64,000 bases of DNA from Candidatus Latescibacterota bacterium (GCA_965116885.1 OZ220741.1:3840001-3904000), one strand, 5' to 3'; shown: positions 2,926-16,496, numbered from the stretch's first letter. Notes: generated by a model from the sequence alone, not told the origin. Numbers and translations: made by a program.

Positions 2926-4008
2926 TTGAAAACCTACCGCGTGGGTATTATTGGATTGGGACGGATGGGCAGCACGATTGACGATGAAGGGCATGCTGTC
3001 AAACCGTATTCTGTTGCGGCCTGTTGTGAGGCGATAGATCAACTCGAACTGGTCGCTGGCTCCGATTTGCAAGCAGATAAGCGGGCGGCTTTTACCGAGC
3101 GATGGGGTGTGAAGGCTGTGTACGAAGATTATCTGGAGATGGTGGCGCGAGAGTCGCTCGATCTGGTGGCGGTGTGTACAACGGCTTCGGGTTTGTTTAA
3201 ACCCGCGAATGAAGCACCCGATGCCAATTTCAGAGGCGATTCACATGCGGATTTAACCGTGGGCCTTGCCAATGCTGGGGTGCCGATGTTGTATGTGGAG
3301 AAGGCGATGGCGAGTTCGATGGCGCGGGCGGATGAGATTTTGGAAGCGGTGAGATCAAATGGCACTGTGTTCAATACGGGTGTTTTGAGACGATTTAACG
3401 TGAGCTACCACGCCGTGCGCCACGCAATTGCCGAGGGTGAAATTGGTGAACCCAAAGCAGCTATTCACTACGCGGCCTCGTCTTTGATGCACGGGCATAT
3501 CCACTCTATAGATACGCTCTCTTTTTTGTTGGGCGATCCAAAGATTGAATCGGTGAGGGGCGAGTTGTTGCCGCGAGATTTTGAGATAGAGAACAATCAC
3601 ATTGCTTTTGATCCGAGCGCGACTTTTCAATTGCGATTTAAAAATGGCGTAGAAGCCTGTTCGGTACCCGCTGGCGGGTGGGAGTTTGAGGTGATAGGTA
3701 CAAAAGGGTGCATTCGGTCAATTAACAATGGGGATGGCATAAAGCTCAGAAAAACCGGTGACATGGTGGGCAAACGCCAGGGTTGGGACGATGCGGAGAT
3801 CGCGCCTGTTGCGCCCAAAAGTCATGTGGTGTCGTGTCTTGAGGATTTGATAGACGCTTATGAACAAGGGCGTCCAACACTGGGGCATGTGGAGGTTGCC
3901 CATCATATCACTGAGGCTTGTATTGCCGTGGCGGAGAGTCATCGCCGGGGGAGTGCGTGGGTTAATCTACCGTTGGTAGAACGGGATTTGTACATTTTTC
4001 ACGTTTAG
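2926..4008 (+). CDS. Gfo/Idh/MocA family oxidoreductase
   Basis: Rossmann GIIGLGRMG and EKAMA motif; TTG start after AAAGGAGG RBS. Confidence 0.85.
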   Translation: MKTYRVGIIGLGRMGSTIDDEGHAVKPYSVAACCEAIDQLELVAGSDLQADKRAAFTERWGVKAVYEDYLEMVARESLDLVAVCTTASGLFKPANEAPDANFRGDSHADLTVGLANAGVPMLYVEKAMASSMARADEILEAVRSNGTVFNTGVLRRFNVSYHAVRHAIAEGEIGEPKAAIHYAASSLMHGHIHSIDTLSFLLGDPKIESVRGELLPRDFEIENNHIAFDPSATFQLRFKNGVEACSVPAGGWEFEVIGTKGCIRSINNGDGIKLRKTGDMVGKRQGWDDAEIAPVAPKSHVVSCLEDLIDAYEQGRPTLGHVEVAHHITEACIAVAESHRRGSAWVNLPLVERDLYIFHV

Positions 4009-4028
4009 GTCTTCATTGGGAGCAGACC

Positions 4029-5111
4029 ATGAAAACATATCGCGCAGCATTGATTGGATGCAGTCGGATGGGTGCATTTATTGACAACGAGGTGGATCAT
4101 ACGCGGGCGTATTCCCATGCGGCGGGATACGAGGCATGTGATCGAACAGATCTGGTCGCGTGTTCGGATCTGCGCGAAGATGTGATGGCGCAGGCGGGCG
4201 AGCGATATGGGGTGCCAAAATCGCGACAGTACACGGATTATCGGGAACTTATCAATACGGAAGAGCCAGATATTGTGAGCGTGGCGACGCAGCCAGAGCA
4301 GCGCGCAGAGATTGTGGTATATGCTGCCGAGCACGGGGCGAAAGCGATTTATGCTGAAAAAGCGATGGCGGCTTCTATGGCGGATGCCGATGCGATGGTC
4401 GATGCGTGTGAGCGCAATGGGGTGTTTTTCAATCTGGGCACTAATCGGCGATGGGATAGAGGGTATGACAGTATGAAGGAGGTGATTGACAGCGGGCGCA
4501 TTGGGCGGTTGCGGTCGCTGATCATTCACCAGACGAGTTCTCTTTTCAATGGTGCGAGTCACAGTTTTGATCTGTTGATGCGCCTCAATAGCGATCACCC
4601 CGCGTCGTGGGTACAAGCACATCTATCGCAGGGTGCGGATGAGATTGAGGGGAATATTTTGAAGGCGGATCCCGTGGGGCACGGAATTATCCAGTTTGAA
4701 AATGGCGTGACGGCTTATGCCCTCAACTCCGGAAGGGGTATGGAGGTTGAAGCTGTGGGCGATGCGGGTGTTGTGACGGCTTTGCAAAATGGCGCGGGGT
4801 GGCAGGTGCGCGAGGTGGTTGGGCACGATCACAGGGGACGAAATGTGCTGGGGTTTGGAGATTTTCCAGAGGTGGAGCCGACGAGTTCAACGGTACATTT
4901 GATTGAGGATCTGGCACATGCGCTGGATACGGGCGAACCGACGCGGTGCGGTGTGCGGTTGGCACATGCCAATCAAGAATTGATTTTTGCTTGTGTCGAG
5001 TCGCACCAGCGAGGGGGCGAGCGGGTGCATCTGCCGCTGAAAGACTGTCCCTATCGCATGGATCGCGGTTTTGCACCCAGGCAACCGAAGTTTGAACGAA
5101 TAGACGAATAG
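4029..5111 (+). CDS. Gfo/Idh/MocA family oxidoreductase
   Basis: ALIGCSRMG and YAEKAMA motifs; paralog of the upstream gene. Confidence 0.85.
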   Translation: MKTYRAALIGCSRMGAFIDNEVDHTRAYSHAAGYEACDRTDLVACSDLREDVMAQAGERYGVPKSRQYTDYRELINTEEPDIVSVATQPEQRAEIVVYAAEHGAKAIYAEKAMAASMADADAMVDACERNGVFFNLGTNRRWDRGYDSMKEVIDSGRIGRLRSLIIHQTSSLFNGASHSFDLLMRLNSDHPASWVQAHLSQGADEIEGNILKADPVGHGIIQFENGVTAYALNSGRGMEVEAVGDAGVVTALQNGAGWQVREVVGHDHRGRNVLGFGDFPEVEPTSSTVHLIEDLAHALDTGEPTRCGVRLAHANQELIFACVESHQRGGERVHLPLKDCPYRMDRGFAPRQPKFERIDE

Positions 5112-5191
5112 ACGAATAGACGAATAGACGAACTCCACTCAACCTCCCAATTGTTGATTCGTTGATTCGTTGATTCGTTGATTCGCAGATT
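5096..5191. repeat. Octamer tandem-repeat hairpin element: (GACGAATA)n - C-rich spacer - (GTTGATTC)n
   Basis: Tandem octamers directly visible; the two arms are imperfect reverse complements. Confidence 0.85.
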
Positions 5192-5208
5192 CTCATGAGG
5201 AGGTTATT

Positions 5209-6225
5209 GTGGAATATCGCGAGTTTGGACAGACGGGTTTGAAGGTTTCGGCAATCGGTTTTGGATGCTGGGAATTGGGCGGGGGATATGGGTCTATTGA
5301 TGACGCTGAGGTCGTCGCTGCGGTCAATCGAGCTATTGATCTGGGTATCAATTGTTTTGATACGGCGCAGGGATATGGCAAGGGCGCGTCTGAACGGTTG
5401 CTCGCGCGTGCGCTGGGACCCAGGCGCAAAGATGTGATTTTGGTTACGAAGTTCGGCATTGGATACGAGCAGGGCAGAGATAGCAGCAAAGAGATGGTCC
5501 ACCGGGCGATTGAGCAGAGTTTGGAGATGCTGAATACCGATTATGTCGATGTGTATCTCGTGCATTGGCCCGACCGCGATACGCCTTTTGAAGAGACTAT
5601 GGGCGCGCTGGAGGAGATTGTCCAGGCAGGGAAGACGCGGTTTGTGGGGCTGTCGAATTTTACGCCTCCGGAAATCGCGCGGTGTATGGATGCGCGGCGC
5701 GTGGAGGTGTTGCAATACGGGTGTAATTTGTTTGACCGCCGCCATGTAAAATGGACGTTTCCATACGCGGAAGCAAATAATGTGGGGATAATGACTTATG
5801 GCTCGCTGGCTTATGGCTTGCTCGCTGGCGCGTTTACAGAAGATACGGTTTTTGAAGATAATGATTGGCGCAGAAGAGGCGGTAGCAATACGACTTTGCG
5901 CCTGTTTGAACCGGGTATTTTCCAGCGCAATGTTCGGGCGGTGAATGAGTTGAAGGAGATCGCCGCGGGGCTGGGTAAAAATCTGCCGCATATGGCGCTG
6001 AATTGGGTGTTGTCTCACCGGGCTGTGAGTACGGCACTGGTGGGTGCGCGAAGGCCAGAAGAAGTAGAAGACAATATGGGCGCTCTGGGGTGGACGTTGG
6101 ATGAGGATACAAAGCGGGCAATTGATCGGGTTTTTGCCAAATACGAGATCGATACGGCACCCAATAAGTGGGGTGAAATTGATTCTAAGTGGATGGATAT
6201 AGATCCTTTAGAATGGTCAGAATGA
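5209..6225 (+). CDS. Aldo/keto reductase
   Basis: VSAIGFGCW, FDTAQGYG, DVYLVHWPD, VGLSNF motifs. Confidence 0.9.
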   Translation: MEYREFGQTGLKVSAIGFGCWELGGGYGSIDDAEVVAAVNRAIDLGINCFDTAQGYGKGASERLLARALGPRRKDVILVTKFGIGYEQGRDSSKEMVHRAIEQSLEMLNTDYVDVYLVHWPDRDTPFEETMGALEEIVQAGKTRFVGLSNFTPPEIARCMDARRVEVLQYGCNLFDRRHVKWTFPYAEANNVGIMTYGSLAYGLLAGAFTEDTVFEDNDWRRRGGSNTTLRLFEPGIFQRNVRAVNELKEIAAGLGKNLPHMALNWVLSHRAVSTALVGARRPEEVEDNMGALGWTLDEDTKRAIDRVFAKYEIDTAPNKWGEIDSKWMDIDPLEWSE

Positions 6226-6231
6226 GAGGAT

Positions 6232-7179
6232 ATGATGGATAACGTGCGCGTTGGTGTGATTGGATGTGGTGGCCGGGGGAGAGGACATATCCGGTCTTTG
6301 AATGAGTTTGAAGATGTGCATCTCTCAGCGGTTTGCGATCCGGTTGTGGATATCCGCGAGTCCGTGTGTGAAGAGTACGGGATTGAGGGGCAATACGGCG
6401 ATGTTTCCGCATTGCTCGAAGGCGAGGCTCTGGATGCGGTTTTTGTCGCGCCGCCTGCACACTTGAATGCCGCGCTTGCATTGCCGTGTCTGGAGGCTGG
6501 CGTCCATACCTTTTTGGAGAAACCTCCTGGTTTGAGCTTGAAAGAGACCGAGGCGCTAAAAGCTGCGTCGGACGAAACGGGCGCGAAGGCCATGGTGGGA
6601 TGGAATCGGCGATTTCATCCGATTATTGTCGAGGCGCGCAATCTGGTGCTGGATCGTGGTCCTGTGACGCAATTGGTGGGGGAGTTCCACAAGAGTATTA
6701 CGGATTTGGGGAATTCGGGTAAGTTTGCCGAGGTGCTGATGGATTGTATGCTTTTTGAGACGCCGATTCACGCGATTGATACGGTCCGCTTTTTGGCGGA
6801 TGCCGATGTTTCCGAGGTTCACAGTGTGGTGCAGCGGTCTATGTCCGGCTATCGGGATGTACACGCGGCGCTCGTCGCGTTTGAAAATGGCGTTGTCGCG
6901 CAGCTTATTCACAATTATACGACCAATGCCAGGCTGGAGCGTTATGAGATTCACGGGCACGAGATTTCGGCTTATCTGGAGGGCGTGTCGCGCGGAGAGG
7001 TTTTTTGCGATGGCGAGAAAAGAGGATTGAGCGGGGATGGATCGGGAACAGACGAACAGAACCGATTTTTTATCGATTGTGTGAAAGAAGATCGCCCGGT
7101 CGCACTCCCCGCGGCAAATTTGGATGAAGCGATTAAGACGATGGAACTGGCCGAGGCGATTATGGCGGGGACGCGATAG
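6232..7179 (+). CDS. Gfo/Idh/MocA family oxidoreductase
   Basis: VGVIGCGGRG, FLEKPP, VGWNRRF motifs. Confidence 0.9.
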   Translation: MMDNVRVGVIGCGGRGRGHIRSLNEFEDVHLSAVCDPVVDIRESVCEEYGIEGQYGDVSALLEGEALDAVFVAPPAHLNAALALPCLEAGVHTFLEKPPGLSLKETEALKAASDETGAKAMVGWNRRFHPIIVEARNLVLDRGPVTQLVGEFHKSITDLGNSGKFAEVLMDCMLFETPIHAIDTVRFLADADVSEVHSVVQRSMSGYRDVHAALVAFENGVVAQLIHNYTTNARLERYEIHGHEISAYLEGVSRGEVFCDGEKRGLSGDGSGTDEQNRFFIDCVKEDRPVALPAANLDEAIKTMELAEAIMAGTR

Positions 7180-7275: not shown

Positions 7276-7352
7276 CGAGGTGTGGCTCAGTCCGGTAGAG
7301 CACCTGCTTTGGGAGCAGGGGGCCGGGGGTTCAAATCCCTCCACCTCGACCA
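7276..7352 (+). tRNA. tRNA-Pro(TGG)
   Basis: Acceptor CGAGGTG/CACCTCG, anticodon arm CCTGC-TTTGGGA-GCAGG, T-loop TTCAAAT, encoded CCA. Confidence 0.97.
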
Positions 7353-8088: not shown

Positions 8089-8149
8089 GGATGGTACAGG
8101 ATGATTGGGATGAACCTTCTACATTATCCACGAAAGCGGAGTAACTCCA
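8089..8149 (+). mobile_element. Partial mini-element (right end), IS3-like terminus family
   Basis: Ends TCCACGAAAGCGGAGTAACTCCA; the preceding ~40 bp are homologous to 9757-9806. Confidence 0.7.
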
Positions 8150-8180: not shown

Positions 8181-8264
8181 TTGTGCCGATAGCTTACGCA
8201 AAATTGCACCAAACACAGGCTTGAACCTAGGCCCTAAATACCCCACCAAAACGGGGTAACTCCA
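8181..8264 (+). mobile_element. Partial mini-element (right end), IS3-like terminus family
   Basis: Ends CCCACCAAAACGGGGTAACTCCA; the preceding ~60 bp are homologous to 16017-16077. Confidence 0.75.
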
Positions 8265-8675: not shown

Positions 8676-9077
8676 ATGGCTAACATGGCCCCATTTTTCC
8701 AAGAATTTTATTCTCAACATCTTGAAGAGTATCTGGGCGGCCAAGATGGTGATACGATAAATATAGTTAATGAAGCTATTGACTATGCAGTAGATCGTTT
8801 GGAAAACCGAAAAGTGCTTCGTTCAGATGCACGGCTGTTCCTAACAATTAACCTGCACGAAATTGTCGCGATACCTTTATCTCAACAGAATTCTCCAACG
8901 AGATTGACTGCTGATATTGTAGGGGAACTCAGAGAAGATACATACAGAATCCTTCAGGCTGCTTCGTTACGCGCAGGAAATAGAGAGGAATTGGCAGCGT
9001 CACACATAGTATGGGGTTTAGCATTTGTTCTAGACGATTTAAATTTAAAGAATTGGAGATTTTGGGACCCCATATAA
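8676..9077 (+). CDS. Hypothetical all-helical protein, possible histone-like fold
   Basis: Strong AAAGGAGGT RBS; 133 aa; segments resemble archaeal histone alpha2/L2/alpha3 (fold call speculative). Confidence 0.75.
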   Translation: MANMAPFFQEFYSQHLEEYLGGQDGDTINIVNEAIDYAVDRLENRKVLRSDARLFLTINLHEIVAIPLSQQNSPTRLTADIVGELREDTYRILQAASLRAGNREELAASHIVWGLAFVLDDLNLKNWRFWDPI

Positions 9078-9149: not shown

Positions 9150-9653
9150 ATGAATGATAAAGATACTATAAGACTTGAAATATGGAAGATGCTCTTCTCG
9201 GTCGCAATTGGCTTAATTGTAGCCTCAACAACTTTTATTGTATATGCATTCAAAAAACCGTCTCTTGGTCCAGCCTTCTGGATATTGTTCGGGATTGGCA
9301 TGGCGGCCCTTTTTATGAGTTGCATTTTGGGCAGTAAAGGGGCATCGCGTATCCCAAATCCAGGCAATTTATTCAATTTACAGGCGTTGTGTTGTGCGGC
9401 CGGATTCTTTCTTCTTGCTATCAGCTTTATCTTTTTGGCTAAACCGACAGAAAACAACACTGTAATTTCAATTATCGGGCTACCAAAAGACTCAGAGCAA
9501 GCTGGCCACATTGTCCAGATACTAGACATAGAGAAATTCTATGAGATCATTACAAGGCTCGAAGCTGTGGAGCAAGATCTGGAAGATTTGCAGAAAAAGT
9601 TCTCGAAAAAAGAAGTAGTGTTGCCTGATACAGCTACTGTATCAGGGCATTGA
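9150..9653 (+). CDS. Hypothetical membrane protein (3 TM helices plus C-terminal coiled coil)
   Basis: Three hydrophobic stretches, then the heptad-like EIITRLEAVEQDLEDLQKK. Confidence 0.7.
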   Translation: MNDKDTIRLEIWKMLFSVAIGLIVASTTFIVYAFKKPSLGPAFWILFGIGMAALFMSCILGSKGASRIPNPGNLFNLQALCCAAGFFLLAISFIFLAKPTENNTVISIIGLPKDSEQAGHIVQILDIEKFYEIITRLEAVEQDLEDLQKKFSKKEVVLPDTATVSGH

Positions 9654-9699: not shown

Positions 9700-9954
9700 T
9701 GGACTTACCCCGTTTTGGTGTATAACACTATCAATCGTCCATCACCTATGAAAAACGGATGGCAAAGGTTGAGGGGGTTGAAATTTCTACACTATCCACC
9801 AAAGCGATGCTGTTGCCGAATTCTGAATTCTGTCTTGATGCAACTAAACATATAGGGCTTACAGAGCCTGAATTCAGGCCACAAGCAACCGTTTTTCCAA
9901 CCGCAGACTCCCCTCAACCAATTCGGCAACAATATCTAAAACGGGGTAACTTCA
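9700..9954 (+). mobile_element. Fused tandem of two mini-elements with IS3-like termini
   Basis: Left end TGGACTTACCCCGTTTTGGTG (9700), internal partial end TCCACCAAAGCG (9795-9806), right end AAAACGGGGTAACTTCA (9954). Confidence 0.8.
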
Positions 9955-10026
9955 TGATTGTATAGAGTACTAAGAGGCAGGTTACAAGTAATAGGAGATA
10001 ACCACAACAAAGTAAGGAGAAATCAG

Positions 10027-10674
10027 ATGCCAAGTTTTGAAATAAACCTTAAGTGTTTTGAATTTCCTCAGAATTTGAAAGATGAATACGCAAACTTTAG
10101 ATTTGCAGTTGAATTACGATTTTTCAATGCAAGCGGTAAACTTGTCACAAAGGAGACTGTAATACCGAGTTTGGAAACTTTTTGGGAATGTGACACAGGT
10201 GAACAAGACGCACAGAATTACGTACGTGCAACCAATGACGATGGGAAATCCATCAACAAATTTGATATGAATAAAATTGGTGTGTGGGACAGCTTAATCT
10301 TTCATATACCTGACATAAAAAGGCTTCATTCTATTAAATTTACTGTCTTTGACGTAAATCGAGAAGACATATGGAATAAGGCAGAAGGCTTATTAGGTAA
10401 AACCGTTGGAACCGCATTTGATGTAGTTACTGGTTCAGTTTTTAAGAAATTGCCATCTGCTTTATCTTCAATTGTTAAGTCAGACGAAGAAGTTATGAGT
10501 GATTTAGAGTCTGCCTTAATAAAGAAGATCACAGGAGGCGATGGTGACAAGATTCTATTTAGAAAATCAAAAGCATTAGATGAAATAAACTCTGAAGATA
10601 ATTTAACATTAACTGGTAAAGGTAAATATGGAGATTACGCGATAGGTATTGAAGTGAAGGAATATCCCGAGTGA
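10027..10674 (+). CDS. Hypothetical protein, possible C2-like beta sandwich with a helical insertion
   Basis: AAGGAGA RBS; WDSLIFHI...SIKFTVFDVNRED pattern recalls C2 domains (speculative). Confidence 0.7.
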   Translation: MPSFEINLKCFEFPQNLKDEYANFRFAVELRFFNASGKLVTKETVIPSLETFWECDTGEQDAQNYVRATNDDGKSINKFDMNKIGVWDSLIFHIPDIKRLHSIKFTVFDVNREDIWNKAEGLLGKTVGTAFDVVTGSVFKKLPSALSSIVKSDEEVMSDLESALIKKITGGDGDKILFRKSKALDEINSEDNLTLTGKGKYGDYAIGIEVKEYPE

Positions 10675-10690: not shown

Positions 10691-10843
10691 TGGAGTTACC
10701 CCGCCCCATATTGTCCAAGAGGGATCTGCGGTTAAAAAGATAGCTGTTTGTGGCCTGATTTCAGGCTCTACAAGCCCTATGTTTAGTTGCATCGAGAACA
10801 GTATTCGGAATTCGGCAACAGCATCCAAAGCGGGGTAACTCCA
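10691..10843 (-). mobile_element. Complete 153-bp MITE-like element
   Basis: Perfect 14-bp terminal inverted repeats TGGAGTTACCCCGC / GCGGGGTAACTCCA; body is an inverted homolog of 9806-9954. Confidence 0.85.
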
Positions 10844-10997
10844 GAGAGACAAAGAAGGAAATTAAGGAAACGTCAATTTCTTGACAGTGGCGCAGAGATT
10901 TTTTCTGGCAATGATACAGTTGAAACGTATGAGGCACGCCTTTCCAATCCTGTGCTAAACGTCCAGGCAAAAATCGTCCGATTATCGGAGAACTAAT

Positions 10998-11735
10998 GTG
11001 TTAACCCTTAAAAGAAACATTAATGTATTGATTGACTATGACAACGTATCACATATTGACCCCCAGAAAGGATTGAATCACGTAGTTAAGTCGATTTTGG
11101 AAAAGCTCCCTAAAGGCATGTTACCTCACGGCACATATATTGCAGTTCGTCTTTATGGTGGCTGGTATAGATCAAGTCAATTGTCGCGACGTGCCCAAGA
11201 CCTAAGCATCCAAATCAGTCGTCACTACCCGGGTACTCTCTCTTTAGATACCGCCAATATGCGCCGTGTGTTCGTCTTCGTGGAGTTGGCTCGGAGCCTT
11301 TTAGTTGATCCTTCACAGGATATTTTAAACACATATAGAGTGAGGGGTGTACCTAGCAACCTGCGCCCTAAGGCATTTCCGTTCCAAGCTTGTACTCAAA
11401 CTCAAAACGCTCTGTGTCCACTCGCTGGTGCTCACACACTCCTTCAAACCGGCACATGCCCTAATTCCTCATGTGGGGTAAAAATCGCTGATGTAATTAC
11501 TCGACATGAACAGAAGCTAGTTGACACGATGCTTACGGCCGATTTGATTCACGTTGCATCTTCGAGCGCATCGGACATTGTCGTGGTTTCCAATGATGAT
11601 GACCTTTGGCCGGGAATTCGTACAGCTATATCTCTAGGAGCTTTTGTTCATCACATTCATCCTCAAAAGGGGCGTAGCACACCTACTTACTACTCCTCAA
11701 CAGTAAAAAAAAATTATTCTCAATATTCTTTTTAA
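10998..11735 (+). CDS. NYN domain (LabA/DUF88, PIN-like) ribonuclease with a Cys-rich insertion
   Basis: VLIDYDNV, EQKLVDTMLTADL, VVVSNDDDLWP acidic motifs; CTQTQNALC...CPNSSC insertion. Confidence 0.8.
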   Translation: MLTLKRNINVLIDYDNVSHIDPQKGLNHVVKSILEKLPKGMLPHGTYIAVRLYGGWYRSSQLSRRAQDLSIQISRHYPGTLSLDTANMRRVFVFVELARSLLVDPSQDILNTYRVRGVPSNLRPKAFPFQACTQTQNALCPLAGAHTLLQTGTCPNSSCGVKIADVITRHEQKLVDTMLTADLIHVASSSASDIVVVSNDDDLWPGIRTAISLGAFVHHIHPQKGRSTPTYYSSTVKKNYSQYSF

Positions 11736-11747
11736 GGCGGCGATTTT

Positions 11748-14006
11748 ATGAATATAGATGATCTAAAAAAAATTCTGATTGCCTTCGCTGATAGTGAAGC
11801 AGATTTAGAGATGGTTGGTAATGTGTTGGTATTTCAGATTAGAGACGAGATCATAGAAGTGTCTGTCGAACAACATAAAGGTAATCTGTTTATTACCGAA
11901 AACGGAGAAAGAAACAGTGCGTATTCCTGGTTGATAAACCGTGTAGCGAGAATTCCACAACTCGCGGATAGATTACTAGATAATGTTCCTTTCGAGCCAC
12001 ATTTTATATCACCTTCTGGAATGCTACTAGATCAAATTGATGCCAATCCAGAGGACATAGAAAAGAAAGTTGAGGATGTTGCTAACCAAATACCAGATCT
12101 TTTATCTCCCCAAACAGTAGGAACGTCGACGGTTCTCTATTTAACCTCCGATGCGGGTGAGGGGAAGACCACACTCATCAATCGGATAGCGCGAAATCAA
12201 GCACAACTTTACAAGGACCAGAAGACGGACTGGTTACTGATTCCAATCAGCCTTGGCGGACGTTCCTTCTTGACATTCGATGATATTGTAGTTGCAGAGC
12301 TCGTAAACAGGTTACGCTTCCAGTTTTTTTATTATAACGCATTCTTGGAACTAGTGAAACTGGGGGTACTGGTTCCCGCTTTCGATGGCTTTGAAGAGAT
12401 GTTCGTTGAAGGATCATCAGGAGAGGCGTTATCAGCATTGGGGAACCTGATGAATTCTCTCGATTCATCCGGAACAGCTCTAATTGCCGCAAGAAAGGCA
12501 TACTTTGAGTATAGGAACTTCGCTACCCAAGCTAGACTGTTTGATGCTATTCGAGATAGATCAGTTTCTTTTGCTAATATTAAGCTCAATAGGTGGGATC
12601 GAAAACGTTTTCTTAGTTATGCGGAGAGAAGAAACCTTTCAGATAGAGAAACGATATACCATAAAGTTCGTACACGATTAAAACCTGATCATCCTTTGTT
12701 GACCCGAGCGGTCTTGGTAAAACGGCTAGTGGAGGAGGCACAAGATGGAAATGTTGATACTCTACTTGACCGTCTCGGGACTACTCCTGAAGACTACTTC
12801 TTTCAGTTTGTTAATACGCTTGTCGAACGAGAATCTCGCGAAAAGTGGATAGATCGTTCTGGTACACCCCATCAATCTCTGCTGACAACTGAAGAACACC
12901 ATGCGCTACTAGCACTAGTGGCAAAGGAGATGTGGATATCCTCAAGCGAAGTACTCAAAGGAGACTATTTAGATCTGATTGGAGAGTTATTCGCTAGTGA
13001 GATCGGAAAACCAACAGTGATTTTACGTCAAATTGTCAATCGTATCAGGCAGCACTCATTAATTGTTTCTGAGAATGAGGAGTCGTATGCATTTGACCAT
13101 GAAGATTTTCGTAAATTTTATCTCGGGGAGGCATTAGGTACTACGTTGCTAGCAAATGATGATAGGGACATAATTGGGTTTCTGGAAAAGGGGTCTTTGC
13201 CACAGCAAACCTGTGATGCGGCACTATATATGGTAAAGAGGAATGCTGGCGATCTTGGTAAAGTCCTTCGGATTCTCCAGTCGTTGGTCAATTCAAGTGC
13301 TCCCCCATCTTACGTTGTGGAGAATGCGGCATCCATGGTTATAAGATTGCTTGAGTTGCTTACCGGTGATAAGGAAGTTGTCATTAAAGAATTTACGTTT
13401 GCTAGTGATGCCCTTAAGGACCGGAGATTTGGTGAAGTTACATTTGAAGGCTGTCTCTTTCAAGAGACATCTCTCGAGAACACGCATATCAGTAGATGTC
13501 AATTTAGACGGTGTACGATATATCAGTTAGAAATTCCGAGTGACTTTCGGACGGAAGGCACAATAATCGAAGATACTGAGATTTTAGGTATAACTCGTCC
13601 TGGCGAATTGCGTGGCATATATGATCCCGAAAGGATTTGCGAAGAGCTTACTTCGGTAGGATTTGAAGTAAAGAGTATTGAGAACCACGTGACGGTACAA
13701 CAACCAGTATCTGAGGCAGATGAAGATACCCTTCTTGCGGAGCGCGCGCTCAGGGCGTTTATGAGGGCAACGCAAATCAATGAGGGCGTATTCCGACAGA
13801 AGTTTGGTAGAGATGCTAACCGATTCATGGAAATAATTTTGCCGAAGATGATCGGCAAAGAAATTCTTCAGGAGGTTCCATACAGGGGGGGCGGGGCGCA
13901 ACGACGCTTTGGAATATGTGTTCCTATGAGTAATATTGAAGCAGCGGTACCGACGACTTTGGGGTCATTAGATGAGTTTTTGTCATCGGTAAAGCATGGA
14001 GCATAA
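11748..14006 (+). CDS. NACHT/STAND-like NTPase with a pentapeptide-like repeat region
   Basis: Walker A SDAGEGKTT, Walker B LVPAFDGFEE, HPLL, winged-helix FDHEDFRKFYLG, beta-helix-like VTFEGCLFQETSLENTHISRCQFRRCTI. Confidence 0.8.
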   Translation: MNIDDLKKILIAFADSEADLEMVGNVLVFQIRDEIIEVSVEQHKGNLFITENGERNSAYSWLINRVARIPQLADRLLDNVPFEPHFISPSGMLLDQIDANPEDIEKKVEDVANQIPDLLSPQTVGTSTVLYLTSDAGEGKTTLINRIARNQAQLYKDQKTDWLLIPISLGGRSFLTFDDIVVAELVNRLRFQFFYYNAFLELVKLGVLVPAFDGFEEMFVEGSSGEALSALGNLMNSLDSSGTALIAARKAYFEYRNFATQARLFDAIRDRSVSFANIKLNRWDRKRFLSYAERRNLSDRETIYHKVRTRLKPDHPLLTRAVLVKRLVEEAQDGNVDTLLDRLGTTPEDYFFQFVNTLVERESREKWIDRSGTPHQSLLTTEEHHALLALVAKEMWISSSEVLKGDYLDLIGELFASEIGKPTVILRQIVNRIRQHSLIVSENEESYAFDHEDFRKFYLGEALGTTLLANDDRDIIGFLEKGSLPQQTCDAALYMVKRNAGDLGKVLRILQSLVNSSAPPSYVVENAASMVIRLLELLTGDKEVVIKEFTFASDALKDRRFGEVTFEGCLFQETSLENTHISRCQFRRCTIYQLEIPSDFRTEGTIIEDTEILGITRPGELRGIYDPERICEELTSVGFEVKSIENHVTVQQPVSEADEDTLLAERALRAFMRATQINEGVFRQKFGRDANRFMEIILPKMIGKEILQEVPYRGGGAQRRFGICVPMSNIEAAVPTTLGSLDEFLSSVKHGA

Positions 14007-14076: not shown

Positions 14077-14146
14077 TGGAGTTATGGAGGTATCCCGTTT
14101 TGGTGGATCATATCATAAATCACCCATCACTTATGAAAAACTGATG
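14077..14146 (+). mobile_element. Partial mini-element (left end), IS3-like terminus family
   Basis: TGGAGTTA followed by TGGAGGTATCCCGTTTTGGTGGA; the next ~40 bp are homologous to 9723-9761. Confidence 0.75.
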
Positions 14147-14181
14147 TTAGTTTTTCGTCTATGGAGAGGAGAGATAAGAGT

Positions 14182-15945
14182 ATGCCTAAATTGATTACTG
14201 ATAGCCAAGATGAGCAAACACTTGAAGAGTTATTTAGGGATGCAGATCAAATTCATATCCCTATCTTCCAAAGATCTTATATCTGGAAGCAAAAGCAATT
14301 AGATGAATTACTGGGAGATATTCGATTAATTAGATCTGAAGTGGAGGAATCTCAATTTCTTGGTGCAATTGTAGCTTATGAGAGGCCACGCGACACCCAA
14401 ATTGTGGGCAGATTGAGAGCATTGGCTGTTGTTGATGGACAGCAACGGCTTCTTACACTTTATATTTTTGTTATGTGCTTAGTTGAATGTGTTGCAGGTA
14501 TCGATAAAGAGGAGGGGCTAGAGATAGTTCGCGAATTTCTCCTCCTTCCGACTCGGCGAGGGTTAGATATAAATACGCGAGTGATTCCTGCATTTTCAGA
14601 TAGAAGTCAATTCAGAGTACTTTGGGATCGCCTTAACAGTCCAGACGTCCTTCAAGGTCATTTCGCCCCCCCCCCAAACCCTCCACCTCCAAGCGGTGAG
14701 GCTGCTGGCGCACTCGTTAAACAGTATAATCGAATACTCAGATTTTTACGTAGCTCATTGCCAGAGGAAAAAAATAAAAGAATAGAATTTCTTCGCGAGA
14801 TCCTTGATATAATTACACGCCGATTGACCTTTGTTCATTTGAAACTAAACGATGCCTCTTCAGCGACCAAAATTTTTGAGAGGTTAAATTTCCGAGGTGT
14901 TAGGGTTGGGATAGTAGACCTTGTGAGAAATGAGATATTTTCTGGGACCGCAGATGATCCCACTGAAGCCCAGAGAATTTTTGATCATGTATGGCGGCCT
15001 TTCGAGACAGAATTTGAGGGAAGATCAGAGGCGTTTTTCTTTCCATATTGCCTTGTTCAAAACAGCAATATTAAAAAGTCAGAATTGTTTTCACAACTCC
15101 GAGAAACGTGGAAATCGCTAAGTCCTGAAGAGATGGTGGAACATATGAAGCCATTTCAAGGGCCCTTTATGAGCATAGACAGCACTGGTTATTACTCTGG
15201 GTGTTCCGAAATTTCGATGCGCTTAGACCGCCTTGTCAGAATGCGAAGGCCCTCATCTGTTTATCCTTATGTAATGTCCATGCTACACGCAAGAGATAAT
15301 GAAGAGATCAATGATGATCAATGTATTGATATGCTTGATGCACTTGAAACCTTTTTAGTAAGAAGGGCAATTGTTGGATTTGAACCAACTGGTCTGCATG
15401 CTCTATTCAAAGGACTCTGGGTACAACTCCCCGAACATAATTCGACAGGGTTCGTATCTATTGTTACCGAAAAACCTACGATTCAGTGGCCAAGTGATAA
15501 CGATTTGATCGAGGCAATTGAAAACCGCCCATTAGCAAGAACGCATATTTGCAATTATCTTCTTGTTGAATACGATAAAGGCCTAAAAGGTGATGACCCC
15601 ATTACTACTCCAACGATTGAGCATATATTGCCTGTGTCGTATGATACTAATAGTGAATGGTCTGATTTATTTTCTAGAGATCAACATAAAAAATTGAAAG
15701 ATACTTGGGCAAATTTAATTCCGTTATCTTCGCCCATGAACTCCTCGCTACAGGCAGATCCATATTCACAGAAACGTCCGAGATATGGAAACGAATCAAT
15801 GTTTATCACTCCGCGAGATATAGCTGACAGGTGGGAAGATTGGACGCCATATAGCATTGAGGAAAGAGCACAAATCCTTACCGCCTGGGCAATCGCACGC
15901 TGGCCACATACTCTACCTAATTCAGCAGACAACGTCGAATCTTAG
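14182..15945 (+). CDS. DUF262-DUF1524 protein (GmrSD-like type IV restriction endonuclease family)
   Basis: IPIFQRSYIW, VVDGQQRL, IFERLNFRG (DUF262); TIEHILP...WANLIPLSSPMNSSL (HNH-like DUF1524). Confidence 0.9.
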   Translation: MPKLITDSQDEQTLEELFRDADQIHIPIFQRSYIWKQKQLDELLGDIRLIRSEVEESQFLGAIVAYERPRDTQIVGRLRALAVVDGQQRLLTLYIFVMCLVECVAGIDKEEGLEIVREFLLLPTRRGLDINTRVIPAFSDRSQFRVLWDRLNSPDVLQGHFAPPPNPPPPSGEAAGALVKQYNRILRFLRSSLPEEKNKRIEFLREILDIITRRLTFVHLKLNDASSATKIFERLNFRGVRVGIVDLVRNEIFSGTADDPTEAQRIFDHVWRPFETEFEGRSEAFFFPYCLVQNSNIKKSELFSQLRETWKSLSPEEMVEHMKPFQGPFMSIDSTGYYSGCSEISMRLDRLVRMRRPSSVYPYVMSMLHARDNEEINDDQCIDMLDALETFLVRRAIVGFEPTGLHALFKGLWVQLPEHNSTGFVSIVTEKPTIQWPSDNDLIEAIENRPLARTHICNYLLVEYDKGLKGDDPITTPTIEHILPVSYDTNSEWSDLFSRDQHKKLKDTWANLIPLSSPMNSSLQADPYSQKRPRYGNESMFITPRDIADRWEDWTPYSIEERAQILTAWAIARWPHTLPNSADNVES

Positions 15946-15948
15946 AAA

Positions 15949-16100
15949 TGGACTTGCCCCGTTTTGGTGGATAATTTATATAATCCTCATCGCAGACATT
16001 CTTCCATTGCCTACTATGCACCGATGGCCTGCGAAAAGCTGCATCAATCACAGGGTTGAAACACAAGCCCTACACTCTCCACCGAAGCGGGGTAACTCCA
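15949..16100 (+). mobile_element. Complete 152-bp MITE-like element
   Basis: Termini TGGACTTGCCCCGTTTTGGTGGA and TCCACCGAAGCGGGGTAACTCCA; starts 3 bp after the GmrSD-like stop codon. Confidence 0.85.
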
Positions 16101-16432
16101 TCGCTGGACGCAAGGTTGGTATCAAAACCATCGGTCAGAAAATTATCGACCTGGAAGACCAAAAAGAACAAATAGAACAGGAGATGATGGATAATGAATC
16201 AATTCTCGCGGAGCTAAAGCAAAAGGCCGTAAGTGTTGCTCAGATGGCGCAAAAACTTACGACCTTTGAGGAATTATTTGATGAAGCCACACCAGAGGAA
16301 CGGAAAGACCTGTTAAGGCTACATATCAACCACCTGATCTATACCCCTGATGCTATTCAACTGGCCTTGTTTGATTCTGCCAATGAAACGGACAGAATCA
16401 AAGTTCAGCGAGAAGATGTAGTTGGTTGCCCC
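16101..16432 (+). pseudogene. C-terminal coiled-coil remnant of a large serine recombinase reading into the att site
   Basis: IGQKIIDLEDQKEQIEQEM...FEELFDEATPEERKDLLRLHINHLIY pattern; no start or catalytic domain, cut at the MITE end; frame continues antisense through the tRNA to TAA at 16516. Confidence 0.7.
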
Positions 16433-16496
16433 TCAGGGATTCGAACCCCGATACCTGGAACCAAAATCCAGTGTCTTGCCATTAGACGAAGGGGCA
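16423..16496 (-). tRNA. tRNA-Gln(TTG)
   Basis: Acceptor TGCCCCT/AGGGGCA, anticodon arm CTGGA-TTTTGGT-TCCAG, TTCGAAT T-loop, CCA. Confidence 0.96.

Follow-up and report, generated by a model that had tools for sequence, protein, structure and literature searches.

A candidate two-part immune module in bacteria: a near-obligate gene pair of an NYN-fold nuclease and a NACHT-type NTPase

Introduction

Bacterial NLR-like proteins are now viewed as ancestors or analogues of the innate immune sensors of animals and plants, and nearly all of those that have been characterised, to our knowledge, carry the killing domain on the same chain. In this work, we analysed a 64-kb stretch of DNA from Candidatus Latescibacterota bacterium (OZ220741.1:3840001-3904000, GCA_965116885.1), hereafter called the window, whose numbering is used throughout. 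We focused on two adjacent genes, in which gene 1 encodes a predicted NYN (PIN-like) nuclease and gene 2 encodes a NACHT-type STAND NTPase with a pentapeptide-repeat region. An earlier note, made from the sequence of the window alone, had proposed these two genes as a candidate anti-phage system. We find that the two genes form a near-obligate pair. This pair is probably an undescribed two-part defence system of the bacterial NACHT/NLR type, whose obligate NYN ribonuclease (RNase) is encoded by a gene of its own.

Several described systems come close to this pair, and what is said of them below refers to the accessible portions of the papers cited. According to Kibby et al. (bioRxiv 10.1101/2022.07.19.500537), bacterial NACHT proteins (bNACHT) usually carry the effector on the same polypeptide, their sensor types include pentapeptide repeats, and their RNase effectors include Schlafen and HEPN domains. 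The present pair shares with them a NACHT module with a D[GAS]hDE-type Walker B, the layout of N-terminal domain, NACHT and C-terminal sensor, the pentapeptide sensor, and a patchy distribution in accessory genome regions. The difference is that the RNase effectors listed there are Schlafen and HEPN, whereas here a near-invariant operon with a free NYN nuclease is found, and no known family of effectors or adaptors was matched by the N-terminal domain. The family may still figure among the ~20,000 NACHT proteins of Table S1 in that paper.

Lee et al. (Nature 2026, PMC13581612) defined 589 STAND clades. As described there, Avs (AVAST) proteins are STAND NTPases thought to sense a phage component, oligomerise and activate a nuclease or other effector, and this is where they resemble the present pair. 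Their effectors are fused to the STAND protein, and their sensors are mostly large, TPR-like and at least 400 aa long (PMC13581612), whereas the present sensor region, made up of a beta-helix and a small domain, spans ~210 aa and the nuclease has a gene of its own. The words 'NYN' and 'pentapeptide' occur nowhere in the text or in 7 supplementary files of that paper. The gene 2 product shows no recognisable fused effector and no large repeat sensor of the Avs type, and PADLOC returned no Avs match for it.

PrrC is one polypeptide that combines an ABC-type NTPase with a HEPN-type nuclease and depends on a restriction-modification (R-M) partner. PrrC and RloC are NTPase-controlled RNases in type I R-M operons, and our cassette, with its predicted RNase, lies in such operons at two loci (L046, L057). 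Unlike PrrC, it consists of two proteins with NACHT and NYN folds, and about 70 of the 80 loci that we retained have no R-M gene as an immediate neighbour, while PrrC is almost exclusively R-M-embedded (Payne et al., bioRxiv 10.1101/2024.01.29.577857). Ragucci et al. (bioRxiv 10.1101/2025.07.10.664194) described nuclease-NTPase operons in which complex formation is reported as universal. These resemble our pair in joining a small nuclease gene to a larger NTPase gene in an operon of one to three genes; however, they combine PD-(D/E)XK, PLD or Toprim/OLD nucleases acting on DNA with helicase- or ABC-type NTPases, in contrast to an NYN domain (a predicted RNase) and a NACHT switch here. The NYN side has a counterpart in HEC-09 (Payne et al.), which also has a MARF1-like NYN domain with conserved aspartates and was found through its embedding in a defence system, but which is a stand-alone protein with an N-terminal helix-turn-helix (HTH)-like region.

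The database searches agreed with the earlier note, which had recognised no named system. No family of PADLOC-DB 2.0.0, which includes the HEC and PDC candidates (these were matched by neighbouring genes), was found for either protein at E <= 0.01, and in NCBIfam 20.0 only HalA appeared, in the pentapeptide region and far under its cut-off (26.6 bits versus 250). A full-text literature search found no operon of NYN plus NACHT-pentapeptide genes; the PDC tables of Payne et al. and Table S1 of Kibby et al. lay outside that search and may list the family.

Results and discussion

The two genes are almost always found together

For the search of related loci, 96 genome loci were confirmed with the NTPase as the starting point and 146 metagenome loci with the NYN protein, and 80 of each set were kept. 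Of the 80 genome loci, 77 have a homologue of the NYN gene beside the NTPase gene; in 75 of these it directly precedes the NTPase gene in the same orientation, and in two (L005, L014) it is divergent. Of the three loci without it, one is at a contig edge (L029), and in the other two the NTPase gene is truncated (L025, L074). From the NYN side, the NTPase was present in 72 of the 73 metagenome loci with at least 300 nt of downstream sequence (exception, L157). The neighbourhood co-occurrence that the earlier note had put forward as a check of its pairing came out in favour of the pair. The spacing between the called open reading frames (ORFs) is mostly -4 to +13 nt, larger negative values being due to over-long ORF starts, and in the window the genes are separated by 12 nt on the same strand.

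The arrangement is also kept in a distant subfamily, since the ORF upstream of a remote NTPase of the same phylum (L169) is an NYN homologue (hhalign probability 99.2). Compared with two congeners, both genes gave ratios of nonsynonymous to synonymous substitution (dN/dS) of 0.40-0.45, which indicates purifying selection on both. Taken together, the two genes form a near-obligate pair that is conserved far beyond chance.

Decay of the pair is seen at a few loci. In L026 and L040 the NYN match is limited to its C-terminal part, and in L031 (3978-5978) the NYN gene, probably split by an insertion, lies in two matching pieces ~1.3 kb apart next to an intact NTPase gene and would represent a natural 'effector knock-out'. 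The distant L169 module (G138, 3840-6708) sits among metabolic genes, namely an aldo-keto reductase, an SDR and an enolase-like gene.

No fusion of NYN and NACHT was found among the best 120 of 1,278 relatives or among the best 150 of 1,237, none of which has the length that such a fusion would require; this is weak evidence. One candidate fusion, an NYN match in the 799-aa protein P0267, was rejected. The NYN part forms the C-terminal end of this protein, and the remaining, Pro/Arg-rich portion bears no relation to the NTPase; it is probably an over-extended gene call.

Gene 1 product, a predicted NYN nuclease

The gene 1 product matches the Pfam family NYN (PF01936) with 25.6 bits, just over the cut-off of 24.2. 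Its AlphaFold2 model, built with 61 homologues, has a mean predicted local distance difference test score (pLDDT) of 90.3. In a structural comparison with 48,161 chains, the top match of this model was the NYN domain of MARF1 (5yaa_A, Z 12.2, root-mean-square deviation (rmsd) 3.0 over 140 residues), VPA0982, likewise of the NYN family, ranked next (2qip_A, Z 11.3), and there was a drop to Z 7.8 at the third place. Foldseek gave no match for the model at E <= 0.001, and a sequence search of the PDB with the protein or its profile returned no match.

In the alignment of 61 NYN sequences, residues D13, N16, D176, D182, D200 and D202 are invariant, in line with the earlier reading that the catalytic aspartates are intact. 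By profile and model, the gene 1 product is thus an NYN-fold nuclease with its acidic residues in place, and it would act as a ribonuclease on RNA. A Cys-rich insert between core strands, a probable zinc knuckle, had been read as a four-Cys insertion, and this reading was confirmed: C132, C140 and C154 are invariant in the same alignment. The fourth (C159, in CPNSSC) is usual and present in the consensus but not invariant, and the NYN protein of the distant subfamily (L169) lacks the whole insert.

Gene 2 product, a predicted NACHT-type switch with a pentapeptide-repeat region

Among 69 aligned sequences, G137, G139, K140 and T141 of the Walker A motif and D213, G214, F215, E216 and E217 of the Walker B motif are invariant. 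Kibby et al. (bioRxiv 10.1101/2022.07.19.500537) give the NACHT Walker B as D[GAS]hDE, in which the Asp is followed by one small and two acidic residues, and the DGFEE of the gene 2 product fits this pattern with E replacing D at the fourth position. The model of the gene 2 product (69 homologues; pLDDT 87.9, predicted template modelling score (pTM) 0.68) contains a winged-helix hairpin at residues 439-449, and the winged helix has an invariant F449-x-H451. We take this motif to resemble the conserved FxH of NLRs.

The top Foldseek matches of the model were NLRC4 (4.6e-14), NOD2 and NLRP3. Realignment to NOD2 gave Z 14.4 and rmsd 6.7 over 363 residues, covering model residues 57-506, and the VIA alignments to NOD2, NLRP3 and NLRC4 covered model residues ~57-506 with 345-407 aligned residues and Z 11.9-14.4. 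In a search independent of Foldseek, NLR NACHT modules took all of the top 7 places among 48,161 chains, with Z 11.9-13.9 and 345-407 aligned residues, whereas ORC/Cdc6, MuB/TnsC, Apaf-1, Avs5 and plant NLRs aligned over only ~185-300 residues with Z 9.4-11.3. The preference for NLRs rests mainly on this longer aligned span, which includes both the winged helix and the second helical domain.

A sequence search of the PDB with a profile of the N-terminal and NACHT regions returned no match. Among 26 relatives scanned, sub-threshold P-loop matches were to nSTAND_NTPase5 in 20, AAA_16 in 8 and NACHT in 5. The distant L169 NTPase (21% identity in 693 aligned columns, hhalign probability 100) clears the Pfam NACHT cut-off with 35.7 bits versus 26.7; its Walker B has the canonical form, DGFDE, and the pentapeptide region is retained. 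Taken as a whole, this relative points to NACHT as the family. By motif and model, the gene 2 product is a NACHT-clade STAND NTPase. The earlier note had seen the Walker A and B motifs and the winged helix in the sequence and had assigned the protein to NACHT/STAND; the motifs are invariant or nearly so, the hairpin appears in the model, and NLR NACHT modules are the best fold matches of the predicted structure.

Outside the NACHT module, no effector family was found in the full-length 752-aa protein by Pfam, NCBIfam and PADLOC scans. No Pfam family covers the N-terminal ~120 aa at E <= 0.1, since the weak TsaE, nSTAND_NTPase5 and KAP rows start at residues 106-114 and extend into the P-loop, and an Atlas search with residues 1-122 found no cluster at or above 0.85 (best score 0.84). 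This bears out the earlier description of a ~120-aa domain with no evident effector motif. The invariant residues of this domain in the 69 sequences (F13, W61, A67, A73) are hydrophobic or small and do not look catalytic.

The beta-helix-like pentapeptide region that had been noticed in the sequence was recovered as well. Pentapeptide_4 scores 24.3 bits in the window protein, under the cut-off of 38, and was found in all 26 relatives scanned, each time under the Pfam cut-off. The family profile matched solved pentapeptide proteins, namely MfpA (2bm4, 5.5e-8) and a McbG-like protein (8e-8), with MfpA, McbG-like and Qnr proteins ranging from 5.5e-8 to 4e-5, and the model shows short beta strands at residues 544-620, a run of ~75 residues. 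Profile and model thus identify this segment as a pentapeptide-repeat beta-helix. The C-terminal alpha/beta domain that follows has conserved positions at P627, R669, F671, R673, G687, F693, G714 and R720.

Distribution and genomic neighbourhood

A word-indexed search gave 1,278 matches to the NTPase family, nearly all of ~750 aa, and an exhaustive search with a profile of residues 1-520 gave 1,237 clusters at 50% identity, 485 of them at E <= 1e-30. The hosts of the 80 genome loci belong to at least a dozen phyla. Members from Latescibacterota are 86-88% identical to the window NTPase, and those from Acidobacteriota, Gemmatimonadota, Bacteroidota, Proteobacteria, Planctomycetota, Verrucomicrobiota, Myxococcota, Desulfobacterota, Firmicutes, Cyanobacteria, Spirochaetota and others are 37-48% identical. 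At close range the cassette is patchy: of 168 genomes from the phylum 5 have it, and so do 2 of 20 other species in the genus. One of these congeners (L001) has a similar tRNA-Gln island with the same repeats but other neighbours around the cassette, and the other (L002) carries the cassette at a different genomic site.

To identify the genes next to the pair, ORFs were picked by a simple greedy procedure, which yielded 73 upstream and 71 downstream ORFs. A PADLOC match at E <= 1e-10 was found for 18 of the 73 upstream neighbours. In seven loci (L046, L048, L057, L061, L070, L072, L078) the gene just upstream encodes a type I specificity subunit, and other restriction genes in this position are HsdR (L069), a type IIG enzyme (L054) and a type III methylase (L080). 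A GmrSD/NsnA-like gene (L042), OLD/AriA- or mad3-like ATPases (L005, L045) and the candidates PDC-S01 (L024), PDC-S02 (L001) and PDC-S46 (L052) were also found upstream, and a Zeta toxin is a neighbour at L039. Directly downstream, HsdR occurs in L018, L046 and L057 and HsdM in L008; further types on this side are GmrSD (L005), a McrB-like AAA_5 protein (L069), TIR (L048), Schlafen/AlbA_2 (L080) and Vsr (L021). In both L046 and L057, hsdS precedes the cassette and hsdR follows it. The context of the pair is defence-like and its distribution is mobile.

At two loci a type I specificity gene and the cassette are followed by a further gene, encoding a TIR-domain protein in L048 and a RhuM-family protein in L070, which suggests multi-cargo embedding in R-M operons.

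Proposed mechanism and alternative explanations

We consider it rather probable, by analogy with described systems, that this single operon is a two-part NLR-like immune module, in which the NTPase acts as a sensor that switches on the separate NYN RNase against phages. A split sensor and effector is favoured because the NYN domain looks intact, the NACHT protein has the make-up of a switch, no effector is found on that switch, the two genes are linked, and their distribution is mobile and of the defence type. That the NYN protein is the effector rather than an accessory is, by the same analogy, our best inference. We infer the anti-phage role, the contact between the two proteins, RNA as the substrate and the order of events in the following scheme. 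At rest, the gene 2 product would be held in an ADP-bound closed state, as in NACHT and Avs proteins. An infection cue would be recognised by the C-terminal pentapeptide beta-helix together with the alpha/beta domain, upon which the nucleotide would be exchanged and the protein would oligomerise. The N-terminal ~120-aa domain may bind the NYN nuclease, so that clustering or release of this enzyme would lead to RNA cleavage and, through it, to the arrest of the cell or the phage (abortive infection).

Several observations weigh against this proposal. NYN domains also work in ordinary RNA processing, as in Rae1/YacP, PRORP and NOB1. As to the fold, the margin of NLRs over ORC/Cdc6-type ATPases is small in Z (~14 versus 11), and the window NTPase itself remains under the Pfam NACHT (PF05729) threshold (13.8 bits versus 26.7). 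The family was found on none of 72,556 plasmids and on only five viral (IMG/VR) contigs, in three of which (L164-L166) it lies within 6 kb of the contig end. In addition, 55 of the 73 upstream neighbours have no PADLOC match and many neighbours are ordinary metabolic genes, and the defence-gene context is an association, given as counts, and not an enrichment. Finally, no defence was seen for HEC-09, an NYN candidate of one gene, with the phages used to challenge it (Payne et al., bioRxiv 10.1101/2024.01.29.577857).

These points have to be weighed together with three other explanations. A tight two-gene operon with the small nuclease gene first, lodged in a mobile island beside insertion sequence remnants and in one case (L039) next to a Zeta toxin, would also suit a toxin-antitoxin-like addiction module, in which an NYN toxin is restrained by the NTPase and the pair, whose loss would kill the cell, stabilises genomic islands instead of sensing phage. 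We regard this as unlikely, since typical antitoxins are far smaller than a NACHT protein of 750 aa that has sensor-type repeats, addiction modules are common on plasmids whereas this family was found on none, and the repeated embedding in type I R-M loci suits defence better, with the caveat that the two roles are not mutually exclusive. There is likewise a small chance that the NACHT protein has its own effector in the N-terminal or C-terminal (627-752) domain, both of which are conserved and have no assigned fold, and that the NYN protein is an accessory, for example an RNA-sensing or regulatory subunit; an effector on the same polypeptide is also what is usual for bacterial NACHT proteins (Kibby et al.). 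Against this, the invariant positions in the N-terminal domain are occupied by hydrophobic or small residues, and the NYN protein keeps its full invariant acidic set, which suggests that its catalysis matters.

A non-immune role as an NTP-switched RNase in stress-linked or developmental RNA turnover seems to us very improbable. The use of NYN domains in cellular RNA processing and the purely metabolic neighbours at many loci speak for it, and Rae1 is among the weaker fold matches of the NYN model (5mq8, Z 6.2). However, such a role fits poorly with a very patchy occurrence even in one genus, with a low-GC island and differing sites in congeners, and with spread over more than 10 phyla at 37-48% identity and repeated R-M embedding. 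The two-part immune module, with the NTPase as sensor and the NYN RNase as effector, remains the reading that we prefer.

A bolder version of the immune module can be drawn up, to which we give little credence. The family would be the first bacterial NLR family with an obligate free-standing NYN RNase engaged through a so far undescribed ~120-aa adaptor domain, with the beta-helix as bait, and it would serve as a back-up guard for restriction. The pentapeptide beta-helix fold mimics DNA in MfpA and Qnr, and in this version it would bait phage DNA-binding or anti-restriction proteins, with the module firing when restriction is disarmed. Such a role would explain the repeated lodging in type I R-M loci, by analogy with PrrC.

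If the two-part immune module is borne out, it would offer a clean genetic system for how an NLR passes its signal to a free enzyme, an arrangement typical of animal inflammasomes. NYN nucleases would also join the validated anti-phage effectors, and pentapeptide beta-helices would gain a possible sensor role. If the pair is not defensive, it would still represent a large uncharacterised family of predicted NTP-switched RNases.

Organisation of the locus in the window

The features of the pair and of its surroundings are listed in Table 1. The GTG start of gene 1 is preceded by GGAGA five bases upstream. A scan for promoters and terminators was no better than shuffles (12 versus 7.9 +/- 2.7 and 2 versus 2.5, respectively), and the PHROGs scan gave nothing useful.

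Table 1 Positions of the gene pair, its domains and motifs, and adjacent features in the window.
Feature	Position	Strand	Basis
Gene 1, NYN (PIN-like) nuclease, predicted RNase effector	10998..11735	+	ORF, 245 aa, GTG start
Cys-rich insert in NYN fold (residues 132-159), probable zinc knuckle	11391..11474	+	conserved Cys; putative metal binding
Gene 2, NACHT-type STAND NTPase, predicted sensor/switch	11748..14006	+	ORF, 752 aa, ATG start
N-terminal alpha/beta domain (residues 1 to ~120), proposed RNase adaptor	11748..12107	+	model; putative adaptor role
NACHT module (residues ~121-537): nucleotide-binding domain, helical domain, winged helix, second helical domain	12108..13358	+	
Walker A P-loop SDAGEGKT (residues 134-141)	12147..12170	+	69-sequence alignment
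Walker B, NACHT-type signature, VPAFDGFEE (residues 209-217)	12372..12398	+	69-sequence alignment
Short pentapeptide-repeat beta-helix (residues ~544-620), part of proposed sensor	13377..13607	+	
C-terminal alpha/beta domain (residues 627-752), part of proposed sensor	13626..14003	+	model
GmrSD-type (type IV restriction-like) gene, context only, outside the pair	14161..15945	+	Pfam, PADLOC
MITE-like element, 154 bp, 15-bp perfect terminal inverted repeats, upstream of gene 1	10691..10844	.	
Partial MITE copy, one end, between gene 2 and GmrSD gene	14085..14146	.	79% identical to 9700-9761

The pair lies within a low-GC island of ~7.0-16.5 kb (39-45% G+C versus 51-55% in the flanks), whose edges are marked by tRNA-Pro (7276-7352) and tRNA-Gln (16423-16496). 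The larger ORFs of the island are all on the + strand, with repeats resembling miniature inverted-repeat transposable elements (MITEs) between them. The product of the GmrSD-type gene downstream of the pair matches Pfam GmrSD_N (2.7e-26) and GmrSD_C (1.3e-17) and PADLOC Orf5 (1.8e-60) and HEC-06 (8.9e-56); such a neighbour is not conserved beside the pair elsewhere (2 of 80 loci, L005 and L042).

Next to tRNA-Gln, the 107-aa translation of the frame at 16100-16420 matches the C-terminal part of the integrase family phrog_95 (positions 489-561 of 651, E 9.8e-5); judged from this match, the stretch is probably the remnant of a recombinase that once integrated the island at this tRNA gene. At the other edge, just past tRNA-Pro, an ORF at 7402-7911 matches Pfam HTH_ParB (1.2e-6) and, weakly, the phage 'recombinase' family phrog_14161 (2.3e-5). 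Three further ORFs of the island, at 8676-9077, 9150-9653 and 9958-10674 (133, 167 and 238 aa), gave nothing significant in Pfam, PADLOC, NCBIfam or PHROGs, and it is possible that they are additional defence cargo. The 167-aa product has a membrane-embedded look. The only NCBIfam row of the 238-aa product had 14.7 bits (E 0.014), and its ORF lies between inverted MITE copies (arms 9852-9914 and 10718-10780).

The earlier note had placed the pair between two mini-elements. These elements are real, but they are MITE-like remnants of an IS3-family element that are spread over the entire island, and not boundaries specific to the pair. Further ends of this kind lie at 8109-8149 and 8224-8264, at 9700-9725 with 9920-9954, and at 15949-15974 with 16060-16100, and all seven repeat-end matches in the window fall within 8.1-16.1 kb, that is, in the island, against a chance expectation of 0.14. 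An integron with an array of attC cassettes was also considered, in view of the genes being all on the + strand and of the hairpin-like repeats. It was rejected because the repeat ends match the terminal inverted repeats of IS3-family copies in the genome and an integron integrase is absent.

The same inverted ends bracket units of ~1.23-1.25 kb elsewhere in the genome. One 1.23-kb unit (L163, G000:C1:1870300-1871850) contains two ORFs of 103 and 266 aa, which we take, from a reading of their translations, to be IS3-family OrfA- and OrfB-like, and an IS3-family unit of this type is the likely parent of the MITEs. Similar end pairs spanning 1,229 bp were found at ~1.142 Mb and 4.168 Mb. In addition, a second cluster of eight MITE-end matches lies at ~4,643,000-4,670,300 of G000:C1 and possibly marks another variable island.

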